64,000 bases of DNA, from NCBI GenBank assembly GCA_963790475.1, contig CAWBOS010000006.1, positions 1 through 64,000 of the forward strand. The letters are read 5' to 3'. Positions 13,842-16,961 of the stretch are shown one piece after another. Source of the stretch: an uncultured delta proteobacterium (GTDB taxonomy: Bacteria; Desulfobacterota; RBG-13-43-22). Positions within the stretch are counted from its first letter, which is position 1; each line of letters starts with the position of its first letter. The notes under the pieces were generated by a model that saw only the letters and a list, made by a program, of their open reading frames with translations, searched no databases and was not told the DNA's origin. The translations under genes and the position numbers were made by a program.

Positions 13842-14628
13842 GATGTTTTATCCCCTTTTGGCAGTTCAATATAGCTCTGCTGGAATCTTTTCTTCCACCA
13901 GTCGCGTATGAGGTATGAAACAAATACCCATTGCTTCTTTTCTTCCACCCATTCAAGGTAACCATCGTGCTGGAGGATATCTATTACCTCTCTTATGATA
14001 TCATCGGTAGATGCCGGTAAATATCTTTGCGCCAATAAACGGGCCGTCTCGGTTGTTAAGATGTTGTTGACGGCGGTTTCTGTGAGGATGTCGAGGGCAA
14101 GAGGCACAGCTTCACTATCAAGCACGCGAAGAAGGCGCTCTTCATAATCGGTAAGTTCGGCATGACCACGGGTACTCAGGAGGGAATTGTTATAGACACG
14201 GTCTATATCTTCAATGGTTATTTCTTGCGCTCCCCTTTTAACGCAGTCTTCATGAATATGGCCGAACAACATTTGTACATGATGAGGAACAAAAATACCA
14301 AGATGGCTAAGCATTCTTTCACATAACTGATTTGACAGAGGGATATTGTTATAGGCCGATAATGCCCTAAGGCAATCCTTCGCCGTTTCTTTATTCCAAG
14401 GATCAAGATGAAAAGGACGCAACTGCGATATGGTGTAACTTAAGCCGTGGAGTCTCAAGACGGGTTCAAGCCCTATTGATCCGCAGACGATGAAGCGGAG
14501 TTTGTCCTGATGTTTCCCCATAATGGATCGGAGCCAGGAGAGGAAAATATCAGCGTCTTTGCGTCTGGTTTATTGTTGTCAAGAGTTTTTTAAATATTAT
14601 TAAACAAACTGGTAACTATCTTAGAGTG

Positions 14629-14781
14629 ACACCTTGCCCAACTCTGGTAATTTGAGAGTCTCAACAGAGCTCTAACCTTGCTTTATTGGGGTTAAGGTGC
14701 AAGCGGAGAGTTATTTAAGCTCTGCGAGAAGGTCGACTTAGTCGCCTTAGATGCCGCAAACGATAATCTCTCCGCTTACAC
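14629..14781 (-). ncRNA. Putative bridge/seek RNA of the IS110 element
   Basis: Two stem/internal-loop/hairpin modules in the 3' non-coding end; loop sequences match the insertion target and the donor junction. Confidence 0.75.
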
Positions 14782-14792
14782 GCTAAGAAGGT

Positions 14793-16052
14793 CTAAGCAG
14801 CCAGTTTTAACGTTGCTCCTTTTGAATAATTTTCCATATATTCGTTATGATCACGCACCAAGGCAAAAATAACACCGAGAAGCTTCCGGGCAATGGCTAC
14901 CAGGGCCTTGATCTTGGGCATTCCTTGATCCAGATGCCTTTGATAGGCCGTATGCATCACTCCCCCTTTTCGAACCGTATTGATAGCGGCAAAAAAGAGG
15001 ATTTTCCTAAGAAGCGACCGGCCTCTTTTGGATATATGACGATTCCCTTGGTGCCTTCCAGAACTGATTTCAAAGAGGTTCAGTCCGGCCAACTTCAGGA
15101 CTTCAGCCAGCGTATGAAATTTACGAAAATCCCCGACTTCTCCAATCAGTCCGGCGGTGGTAACCTCTCCTATCCCTTTCAAGGACAGAATCGAATGACT
15201 ATAGGGGATCTCGGGAAGAAGGGCCGCCATCTCCTGTTCCGCCTTCTCAATAAACTGGTCAGAAGATTCAATCTCAGAAAGAAGTTCTCGTATCTCAAAA
15301 AGAATCGCCTTGCGGCCTTCTTGAAGACCTACGGAATGGCCAGCGGCCGCATAAAGGGCCGGGGCTCGCTCTTTATCCAGCTTCCCTCGGCTAACCCGTC
15401 TCAGCGTGGCCCTCAAGGTCCCAAGACCACATTGGATAATATCTTCCGGGCACGGATAATGCCGCAACAGATATTGGGCACTGCGGGTTTTAATATTCTT
15501 CATCACTTGCAGAAACTCGGGGAAGACAATAAAGACCAAATCCTGAATCTGGTTCAAAAGGCCCGTTCGTCTTCGTATGGCTCTCTCCCTGGCATGGGTC
15601 AGTCGGCGAAGTTCAGCTGCCGCGCCTTCGGGAATGACCACGGTAAGGGCATGACCCAGCTCAATAATATCCGCAATGACTTTGGGATCTTTCCTATCCG
15701 TCTTATTGGGCGAGTTACCCTGGACTTCCTTCAACTTCTTCGTATGCATAGGATTAACCTGAACCAGTGTCACCGGCCGTTTCATCAGAAAATGTTGCAA
15801 GGGTTCTCCATAAGACCCGGTGGATTCAAAACCAACCACGATTTCTTCCAAGTGATTGGCCTCTTTGGCCTCAACCATCCGATTCCAAAATTTCGTAAAT
15901 CCTTGATCATTATTGAAAAACTCAAAAGGTTTGATTTCCGTCCGGTCTGGACAGCGGCCATATCCCATATTGGTCGTTTTGCCTATGTCCACGGTACCGA
16001 TAAGGGTTTTTTCATTGACCTTCTTAAGTTTTTTTGTTTCAATCTTATTCAT
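14793..16052 (-). CDS. IS110-family transposase/recombinase
   Basis: DEDD residues in GTVDIGK, FESTG, KTDRKD; C-terminal Transposase_20-type region GIG..SSG..ISKRG..LR; KALVAIARKLL. Confidence 0.96.
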   Translation of the reverse strand: MNKIETKKLKKVNEKTLIGTVDIGKTTNMGYGRCPDRTEIKPFEFFNNDQGFTKFWNRMVEAKEANHLEEIVVGFESTGSYGEPLQHFLMKRPVTLVQVNPMHTKKLKEVQGNSPNKTDRKDPKVIADIIELGHALTVVIPEGAAAELRRLTHARERAIRRRTGLLNQIQDLVFIVFPEFLQVMKNIKTRSAQYLLRHYPCPEDIIQCGLGTLRATLRRVSRGKLDKERAPALYAAAGHSVGLQEGRKAILFEIRELLSEIESSDQFIEKAEQEMAALLPEIPYSHSILSLKGIGEVTTAGLIGEVGDFRKFHTLAEVLKLAGLNLFEISSGRHQGNRHISKRGRSLLRKILFFAAINTVRKGGVMHTAYQRHLDQGMPKIKALVAIARKLLGVIFALVRDHNEYMENYSKGATLKLAA

Positions 16053-16961
16053 GGCTATACTCCTTTCCTTGGTTTGGGTTTAACCAACTTGCAAATTGGA
16101 CCTCAAATCAAGAAAGAGTATAGCCTTTTTTGTACGGCTTAACTACTTTCTAAAATATAGCAAGCTCTGTGTATAATCGGGAGCATTTTTACGGCCAAGA
16201 AGTCTTGTCAGCATTACCGGCAGTTCATCAAGACAAACGGTAACGGGACGGTCCGCCTGAGCGAGGCTCTCCATTATCTCCCTGCCTTTTGGGAGCCAGT
16301 CCCCCTTGAGACCTTCACGTATTTTGATCTCAAACAGACTGGAAGACCCCACACTCTCTATGTTTTCCTGGATCTGTTTCCAAAACGCCTTGAAGATACT
16401 GATAATCTTGTCGTGAAGAGCGCTATATGGACTGGTTTCTATGGAGATCGCCGTTATTACATCCTCCGGTGTTGTGCAGTGCTACAAATCAACAAACAGA
16501 AAATAATCAGCATTATTCTGGGCCATTCTTCTAAAGGTTTCGCGAACAAGGCTGGTTTTACCCACCCTGCGTGGGGCAACGATTAGTATGTTATTTCCCT
16601 CATCGATTAGAGTGGTTAATCGTTTGATTTCAATTTCCCGATTGAAAAATTCATCACCAGATACCCATGGACCATATTTGTTCTTCATGCCTTTTTCCAT
16701 TTATACCCTCCTATCTGGTAGTTATTTTCAAACCAATAAGTTGGCAACCTTATGGTTGGATAACATAGGTAGAGTTATTTGTCAATAATTATTTCCAACT
16801 AATTATTTGGCAACTTCTGGGTTGGTATTCTTTATAAGGAGTCGGTCGGTTTAAGATCGGGGCTATACTGTTGGACAAAATATGTAGGTATCTGATATAA
16901 ATTAACTTCTTTCCTCCATCCCTCCATCTGTTTCTGATTACCCGACGCTTCTCTTCCGCCC

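Follow-up and report, generated by a model that had tools for sequence, protein, structure and literature searches.

The locus analyzed here raises the question of whether a transposase gene and the structured noncoding DNA behind it form one RNA-guided mobile element and, if so, where this element belongs among the known systems. It lies in the window, the whole stretch of 64,000 nucleotides (nt) that was analyzed (positions 1 to 64,000 of contig CAWBOS010000006.1, assembly GCA_963790475.1, from an uncultured delta proteobacterium). The element is very probably an autonomous IS110-family insertion sequence (IS) that moves by RNA-guided recombination, encoding on the same strand a 419-amino-acid (aa) DEDD/Ser recombinase and a two-loop bridge RNA of ~160 nt. 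This reading draws on what was observed of the boundaries, the copies, the RNA structure, the covariation of guides and handshake bases with their targets, and the occupancy of sites. The boundaries and ends of the element are as follows (junctions are named on the forward strand and ends in transposase sense).

14567..16166, minus strand: whole IS, 1600 bp including the right-hand CT core; defined by 10 genome copies and by empty sites that equal the rejoined flanks
14565..14566, no strand assigned: CT core copy at the left junction (AG in transposase sense); CT precedes GGTTTATTG in 10/10 copies
14567..14592, minus strand: conserved right-end terminus with the right donor half GGTT in the RNA frame, TAT at 14571-73 and the -35 element TTGACA at 14577-82; 88-100% identity in relatives, with a variable spacer upstream
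16053..16166, minus strand: left end, 114 nt, with the left donor half TAGCAAG at 16158-64, ATA at 16155-57, the -10 element TATATT at 16154-59 (minus strand) and a hairpin in the 5' untranslated region (UTR)

Analysis of the host genome (6.34 Mb, 20 contigs) revealed 10 copies of the element, each 1600 bp long with the same end letters. Nine of the 10 are letter-identical, and the tenth carries one substitution, which lies in the gene. All 10 have CT before the left end and CT at the right end; in the window, CT was read at 14565-66 and again at 16165-66. The duplicated core is CT because the two letters beyond the right-hand CT vary among the copies (CT, TT, CC). One of the two CT copies at the junctions is target derived, and the other is element derived. 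Among 53 relative loci, CT was present at both ends in all 42 in which both end motifs were found. Two empty sites, TTTGCGT-CT-TTGCGG, are the exact rejoined flanks of occupied sites, and removal of 14567-16166 in silico rejoined the host frame as a 347-aa open stretch. The 10 copies and the empty sites bear out the boundaries and the duplicated CT core proposed in a first-pass annotation of this DNA, and the rejoined frame agrees with its claim that excision restores the host open reading frame (ORF).

The noncoding ends measure 226 nt on the right (14567-14792) and 114 nt on the left. In the left end, 16113-25 pairs with 16053-65 in a leader hairpin that covers the ribosome-binding site. ATA directly precedes the left donor half, and TAT sits 4 nt beyond the core on the other side. 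A search for inverted repeats in the element found no subterminal pair of 7-17 bp joining the ends, which confirmed the earlier impression that obvious subterminal inverted repeats are missing; inspection by eye revealed only the ATA/TAT pair and a 6/8 match.

The gene occupying most of the element is the following.

14793..16052, minus strand: transposase (bridge recombinase) gene, 419 aa; assigned by Pfam, NCBIfam, invariant residues and the predicted fold

Analysis of the transposase sequence revealed the domains PF01548 and PF02371 (Pfam) and a match to NCBIfam NF033542, IS110 family RNA-guided transposase, at 216 bits (cutoff, 140). Residues D22, E76, D119, D122, and S331 were invariant in an alignment of 31 sequences. 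S331 aligned with the serine of the ESG motif of IS621, which we take to be the catalytic S241 named for IS621 in PMC11208158. By sequence, the only solved relatives found were IS621 (E = 4e-8) and ISCro4. An AF2 model was obtained with a mean predicted local distance difference test (pLDDT) score of 75 and a predicted template modeling (pTM) score of 0.61. Comparison of this model by Foldseek gave IS621 (8wt6; E = 3e-10) and ISCro4 (9t56) as the top matches, with template modeling (TM) scores of 0.53-0.55 on the target, followed by Nop5-type proteins and TIGR-Tas. The added length of the enzyme, made up of extra helices, lies between two long coiled-coil helices (model residues ~178-238), which is where, according to Siddiquee et al. 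(PMC11187229), long IS110-type enzymes have their "variable region." In tblastn searches, the protein aligned over nearly its full length to IS110-type elements (92% of the query for ISBth13, 93% for ISRel25, and 95-97% for Bacillota elements), and several enterobacterial elements, including ISEc45, aligned at the C-terminal domain only.

The noncoding DNA behind the gene was resolved into an RNA scaffold with two stem-loops.

14626..14788, minus strand: bridge RNA scaffold, ~160 nt, with its start a few bases past the stop codon, target loop first and donor loop second; conserved in relatives, with covariation
14699..14779, minus strand: target-binding stem-loop, outer stem 14768-79 with 14699-710 and inner hairpin 14729-48
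14630..14699, minus strand: donor-binding stem-loop, outer stem 14688-99 with 14630-42 and inner hairpin 14656-72

Folding of the 226-nt end gave two stem-loops with a minimum free energy (MFE) of -67.9 kcal/mol (z = -4.24; 0/200 shuffled sequences as good), in agreement, also as to their positions, with the earlier prediction of two stem-loops in this end. For comparison, relatives were collected. The transposase has thousands of them, and the best 120 are 399-420 aa long with at least 69% identity; 43 loci were taken from genomes and 80 from metagenomes. The segment 14630-14788 keeps 71-86% DNA identity even where the proteins of the loci share only 57-67%. The last 26 nt of the element are also kept, and the spacer between scaffold and terminus varies in length. 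A second TTACCAG in this poorly conserved spacer (14609-14615) is probably due to chance. The consensus of 28 aligned RNAs consists of two stem-loops, in each of which a large internal loop separates an outer stem from an inner hairpin. Compensatory changes were found in 26 of its 39 pairs. Paired cells amounted to 98.5%, compared with at most 48% when the partners were slid, and on 4 of 5 measures 0/500 shuffles equaled the observed value. In total, 116 loci carried the RNA scaffold.

The loops carry four segments that could act as guides.

14752..14760, minus strand: 5' target guide UUUGCGGCA, pairing with ACGCAAA on the transposase-sense top strand and with the first core base; family-wide cognate match
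14720..14726, minus strand: 3' target guide CGCAG plus AG, with AG pairing with the core; positions match at 0.76-0.93, AG invariant
14675..14683, minus strand: 5' donor guide AAGCAAGGU, 7/9 against the left donor TAGCAAG-CT
14644..14650, minus strand: 3' donor guide UUACCAG, in which ACC pairs to GGT in the right donor and AG to the core; ACCAG invariant in alignment A1

The four guide-like strings reported in the first-pass annotation were all found in the loops and read, in RNA sense, TTTGCGGCA (14752-60), CGCAGAG (14720-26), AAGCAAGGT (14675-83), and TTACCAG (14644-50). The 6/7 match given there for CGCAGAG and the right target holds for the window site; CTGCG, the commonest right target among the copies, fits it 7/7. 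Guide matches from one copy alone are no more than suggestive. When the 226 nt were shuffled with dinucleotide composition preserved, 3% of 5000 shuffles reached all four thresholds of the first reading somewhere in the sequence. Since single-copy matches arise by chance at this rate of about 3%, the case for guides and targets rests on comparative data.

Two segments of loop 1 form the most variable columns of the RNA alignment, and loop 2 is invariant. Similarly, the flanks of the element differ between relatives, and its ends are almost invariant. Covariation was assessed by scoring the loop-1 segments of each element against the flanks of that element and against those of the other elements. 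In the first set, the 30 distinct cognate pairs scored 6.27/7 and 4.47/6 for the two guides, compared with 3.39 and 1.96 in 812 noncognate pairs. Permutation at group level gave 92 ± 8.6, compared with the observed total of 176/208, and none of 20000 permutations was as high. The extended set comprised 116 loci with the RNA, 104 of them with both flanks, which reduced to 88 distinct combinations and 63 distinct guide pairs. Here the total was 674/819, compared with 320 ± 14.6 after permutation (maximum of 378 in 5000). In the comparison with relatives as a whole, the two guides matched 6.2/7 and 4.4/6 positions in cognate pairs and 3.4 and 1.8 in noncognate pairs. Collection of homologues, which the first-pass annotation had proposed, has thus yielded guide-target covariation over 63 guide pairs. 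Together with the RNA structure, it supports the central claim of that annotation, an IS110 element with a 3' bridge-type RNA whose target and donor loops match the insertion.

The same data bear on a different explanation, in which the 3' stem-loops are a structured 3' UTR, a terminator, or protein-binding ends and the guide matches are fortuitous. The rate at which shuffles of a single copy meet the thresholds speaks for it. Against it stand the loop segments that follow the flanks in 63 guide pairs, the stems that keep their pairing by compensatory change, and the absence of a T-run terminator, and we consider it extremely improbable.

For RNA-guided insertion, the per-position matches define the extent of the target. 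The 5' guide matched target positions 1-7 at 0.80-0.97, core base 8 at 0.75, and core base 9 at 0.40. The five positions of the 3' guide matched at 0.76-0.93, and the core-pairing AG was invariant in 88/88 combinations. One position beyond this span, the match was at background on both sides (0.25 and 0.15). Because the match falls to background outside the span, the site is 7 + CT + 5, which is also the target geometry of IS621. Judged from these sequence comparisons, the target in the host genome is the 14-bp site TTTGCGT-CT-YTGCG. Many of the guide-target mismatches are G.T or U.G wobbles. In a relative with four copies (L022-L025), three insertions occurred at sites with two 5'-guide mismatches (ACCTTCTA) and one at a perfect site (ACCTGATA); these insertions at two-mismatch sites indicate a natural tolerance of internal mismatches in the 5' guide. 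The family ends, which form the donor, read AGCTTGCTATATT ... TTGACAnCAATAAACCAG in transposase sense and are nearly invariant. Both the donor and the putative donor guides are nearly invariant in the family, so that no covariation between them is visible.

Examination of the insertion sites revealed that 9 of the 10 copies lie inside an intergenic repeat that is present in ~100 copies. This repeat is built of a hairpin with a variable stem and a conserved loop, an A-rich stretch, and three 9-mers ending in ...TTTGCGNCT-YTGCGGTGA. The 9-mers read ..CTGCGNYC TTTGCGNCT YTGCGGTGA, and changes in the hairpin stem compensate each other while the loop stays CCTCTCA. Examples were seen beside IS copies (L003, L004, and L008) and around position 12120 of contig C13 of the host genome (G000; minus strand). 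The repeat matched no family in Rfam. The window copy is the exception. It lies inside a gene without the repeat, at the site TTTGCGT-CT-CTGTG, which keeps the left half and the core; its sole departure, in the right half, is a G.T wobble. The interrupted gene, an ATPase-like minus-strand ORF (13838 to ~16700), contains an in-frame TAG at 16482-16484, 72 codons in; this TAG may be read through, or the gene may already have been a pseudogene when the element inserted.

A second determinant of the site may lie next to the core-pairing bases of the RNA. After strand exchange in IS621, the two bases that follow each core-pairing segment on its 3' side pair with the noncognate DNA at position 7 (and 6), and exchange is blocked when these handshake bases pair with the cognate DNA (PMC11208158; PMC13626964). 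The corresponding bases of the element are as follows.

14718..14719, minus strand: putative target-loop handshake CU, complementary to donor position 7 (G) and position 6 (A); role inferred from IS621 (PMC11208158)
14642..14643, minus strand: putative donor-loop handshake AG, with the first base A complementary to target position 7 (T); family-wide complementarity

In nearly all rows of both bridge RNA alignments, a C follows the core-pairing AG of loop 1, and position 7 of the donor is an invariant G. The base after the CCAG of loop 2 is variable; in 60 of 70 distinct cases it forms a Watson-Crick match with target position 7 (A:T, 11; G:C, 44; U:A, 5), with G.T in six more. In 20000 permutations, the mean was 37 and the maximum was 51. 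Target position 7 was G in 1 of the 70 cases, and the handshake base of loop 2 was never C. In the transposase tree, where the placements of L029 (also A:T) and L039 are void because the wrong open frame was used (branch length, 10), the A:T pair of the window copy is separated from those of the L040-L042 clade by relatives with G:C.

Occupancy in the host genome was counted for sites of the form T[TC]TGCG-N-CT-[CT]TGCGG. Three insertions outside this right-half pattern were left out of the count, and they also have T at position 7.

Position 7 = T: 7 filled, 4 empty
Position 7 = G: 0 filled, 23 empty
Position 7 = C: 0 filled, 12 empty
Position 7 = A: 0 filled, 6 empty

The difference between T7 sites and all others (0 filled, 41 empty) was significant by Fisher's test (p = 2.5e-6), as was that between T7 and G7 sites (p = 6e-5). 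The repeat sites with the best guide fit, which have G7, are all empty, and the filled sites fit the loop-2 handshake A. Handshake gating may explain why T7 sites are filled and G7 sites are empty. The C of loop 1 would fit donor position 7 (G) and the A of loop 2 target position 7 (T), and G7 targets would pair with the loop-1 C before exchange.

The empty G7 sites may also have a cause unrelated to the handshake, such as a noncanonical G-A contact made by the 5' guide, some property of a T7 repeat subfamily or of its hairpin, or the history of spread. The handshake rule is taken over from IS621, the occupied sites have further upstream letters in common (CTGCGTYC), and a target-encoded stem-loop is an extra determinant for ISPpu10 (10.64898/2026.03.19.712850), with a hairpin lying ~30 nt from the site in the repeat described here. 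The 18 C7 and A7 sites are also empty and are left unexplained if the loop-1 C need only avoid cognate pairing. However, the A of loop 2 pairs with T only, so that empty C7 and A7 sites are covered as well. The same hairpin is present at G7 sites, the window copy has T7 although it lies in a gene without the repeat, and both the 60/70 complementarity and the single G7 target among 70 cases are family-wide and independent of the host genome. On this evidence, such a cause is unlikely.

For the element as an RNA-guided IS, the following cycle is proposed, in which we infer the expression and processing of the RNA, the circle, the activity of the junction promoter, and the chemistry. Loop 1 would read the target, with a 7-nt guide plus the first core base on one strand and one side of CT and a 5-nt guide plus AG on the other strand and the other side. 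Loop 2 would read the joined ends of the element, ATA-TAGCAAG-CT-GGTT-TAT. The element would excise as a circle, in which the joined ends would build a TTGACA-17-TATATT promoter. On joining, TTGACA (14577-82) and TATATT (16154-59) are 17 nt apart and 101 nt upstream of the start codon; junction promoters are known for the IS110 family. This promoter would drive the transposase gene and, by read-through, the RNA. The RNA would arise by read-through from the gene and subsequent processing because no promoter-like site precedes it, and read-through with processing has been proposed for other members of the family (PMC12288879). A complex of recombinase and RNA would then pair the circle junction with the target, and strands would be exchanged at CT.

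Several results weigh against this interpretation. Of the 88 cognate combinations, 5 fit their guides poorly (they are kept in all counts), and in L103 both guides fail to match. Among relatives, the 5' guide shifts its register in the loop strand by 1-2 nt, and in the host genome this guide carries a G where 10/10 targets have T and mismatches the last core base. The 3' donor guide pairs over 3 nt plus the core only. Four of the 70 handshake cases do not pair, including the multicopy relative L026, and the handshake reading of the empty G7 sites is borrowed from IS621, with which the enzyme shares 16-18% identity in structural alignments. A promoter scan revealed no promoter-like site upstream of the RNA on the minus strand, and a terminator scan revealed no terminator-like site, T-run terminators included. 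Rfam gave no family for the element or for four other copies with their flanks. In two metatranscriptomes small shares were found, and a few contigs of relatives cover 14557-14789, with little of the gene; DNA carry-over is possible in such contigs, conservation at the DNA level is also highest in the RNA region, and the contigs give no strand, ends, or level, so that they were not counted as expression.

Comparison with characterized systems indicates that the element is a further example of a system known since 2024 and not a new class. The features singled out in the first-pass annotation, namely, an RNA 3' of the gene, a core that reads AG in transposase sense, and a 419-aa enzyme, are all present in the sequence. 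Its suggestion of a candidate new programmable recombinase was fair as a lead; the novelty was overstated, because each of these features is an already-described variation of the family. In the IS1111 group, an RNA 3' of the gene is standard, and some IS110-type elements have one as well (PMC11208160; PMC11187229); ISPpu9 has an AG core in transposase sense (PMC12288879), and IS110-proper transposases typically have 395-455 aa (PMC11187229).

Among the closest known systems are IS621 and ISCro4 (PMC11208160; PMC11208158; PDB entries 8wt6-9 and 9t56). Like these, the element has a two-loop RNA with the target loop followed by the donor loop, a 7 + CT + 5 target with one guide per strand and both guides extending over the core, and putative handshake bases just 3' of the core-pairing bases. 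It also shares with them a simple internal donor loop, ATA/TAT beside the donor halves, a predicted junction promoter, and a DEDD plus Ser enzyme, the predicted fold of which matches their structures first. It differs in that the RNA lies after the gene and not before it, the guide frame and core are inverted relative to the direction of the gene, the enzyme is ~90 aa longer (16-18% identity in structural alignments), and the 3' donor guide, at 3 nt plus the core, is shorter.

The layout, in turn, recalls the IS1111 seekRNA elements ISEc11, ISPa11, and ISKpn4 (PMC11187229), which also have the longer noncoding region downstream of the transposase gene, a guide complementary to the top strand preceding the matching one, and site-specific insertion into repeats. 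The bridge or seekRNA usually lies upstream of the gene in the IS110 group and downstream in IS1111 (PMC11208160; PMC11187229; PMC12288879). On the IS1111 side, the longer noncoding region and the guide RNA (14626-14788) were found downstream of the transposase gene, and the 114-nt left end, where an IS110-group element would be expected to carry its guides, holds the leader hairpin only. On the IS110 side, long terminal or subterminal repeats are absent, and ATA (16155-57) and TAT (14571-73) agree with the short repeat beside the donor halves that Durrant et al. (PMC11208160) describe for this group, the expected spacing being given in a figure legend only. By sequence criteria, then, the element is IS1111-like in its layout (3' RNA and guide order) and IS110-like in its ends, its long enzyme, and its simple donor loop.

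That the element is simply an ordinary IS1111-group member, with the same mechanism and a right-end seekRNA, would fit the position of the RNA 3' of the gene and a right end of 226 nt that exceeds the left end of 114 nt. Of the two guides, the one that complements the top strand in transposase sense leads, as described for the seekRNAs of IS1111 (PMC11187229), and RNA location closely predicts phylogeny according to Durrant et al. (PMC11208160). This assignment nevertheless appears improbable, since the 11-13-bp subterminal inverted repeats of IS1111 are missing (no repeat of 7-17 bp joins the ends, only the 3-bp ATA/TAT and the imperfect 6/8 match) and the enzyme has 419 aa compared with 330-350 aa for IS1111 (PMC11187229). 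The near full-length tblastn alignments go to IS110-type elements, with several enterobacterial elements aligned at the C-terminal domain only, in a comparison that included no IS1111 reference directly. The donor loop is a simple internal loop and not the multiloop noted for many IS1111 members.

The "green group" of PMC11187229 (Fig. 1b), which comprises IS110-type elements with their longer noncoding region downstream of the gene, is alike in layout, as compared by description only. A tentative possibility is that the element belongs to a third, uncharacterized layout that combines an IS110-type enzyme and ends with an RNA behind the gene in an inverted frame, occurs in at least 8 phyla, and has one invariant donor and at least 63 natural target specificities on one scaffold, with position 7 read mainly by the donor-loop handshake base and the antisense frame described below kept by most members. 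A literature search for any published IS110-type clade whose RNA lies in the right end, which covered text outside figures and supplements, revealed no paper beyond those cited here, and 3' RNAs are not mentioned in preprint 10.1101/2025.10.25.684509 or in the reference passages of PMC13626964. Two elements were considered and rejected as parallels. The bridge RNA of ISPpu9 lies upstream, with Ssr9 being a separate module (PMC12288879), and in ISBth13 the long gap precedes the gene.

Close relatives were found in metagenome-assembled genomes (MAGs) labeled Thermodesulfobacteriota, Nitrospirota, Myxococcota, Pseudomonadota, Planctomycetota, Bacteroidota, Bacillota, and Auribacterota. Two relatives from different phyla, L012 and L050, have identical loop-1 guides and near-identical targets. 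Provided that the bins are clean, the distribution points to frequent horizontal transfer of the family.

Bridge recombinases are under development as programmable DNA-insertion tools. The family described here offers a natural panel for this purpose, with one scaffold, one donor, and dozens of target loops, from which the 7 + CT + 5 geometry and wobble-tolerant rules can be read in genomes. The host genome is a natural experiment that agrees with the handshake rules of IS621; it suggests that these rules hold in a distant branch, which would be useful for the choice of targets and the design of guides. The general picture of how such elements work is unchanged.

The transposase gene is overlapped by a 431-aa open frame in antisense orientation, in phase with its codons (14847-16142, plus strand in the window), and such frames were also seen among loci L011-L135. 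The gene has 2 TTA/CTA/TCA codons, compared with 8.6 expected; in the host genome, 2 of 217 long ORFs have none of these codons. In 101 distinct genes of the family, with guanine-plus-cytosine (GC) contents of 0.34-0.57, TTA/CTA/TCA account for 3.9% of Leu and 3.5% of Ser codons, and half of these codons fall within its final tenth in the gene. Their counts are bimodal, with 3 or fewer in 85 genes and 6 or more in 16. An antisense frame of at least 300 aa is open in 95 of 119 loci. As a candidate protein, this frame was rejected. It gave no Pfam match, an AF2 model with a mean pLDDT of 31, and an ESM recognition score of 864, which lies in the range of shuffled sequences; no ribosome-binding site was seen for it by eye. 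It recalls the "hed" open frame on the complementary strand of IS900 (PMC8141618), and IS900 and its relatives also have transposases of ~400 aa. As in IS900, the antisense frame spans the whole gene; a difference is that here it closes within the 3' part of the element and so cannot fuse to host genes.

Analysis of the same genome also revealed distant IS110-family transposase genes (23-29% identity) at G000:C13:479330-480151, C1:240544-241365, C12:172304-172639, and 1483737-1484072. Beside another copy of the element lies a selenocysteine tRNA gene (Rfam RF01852, 74 bits; L008:158-251, minus strand).

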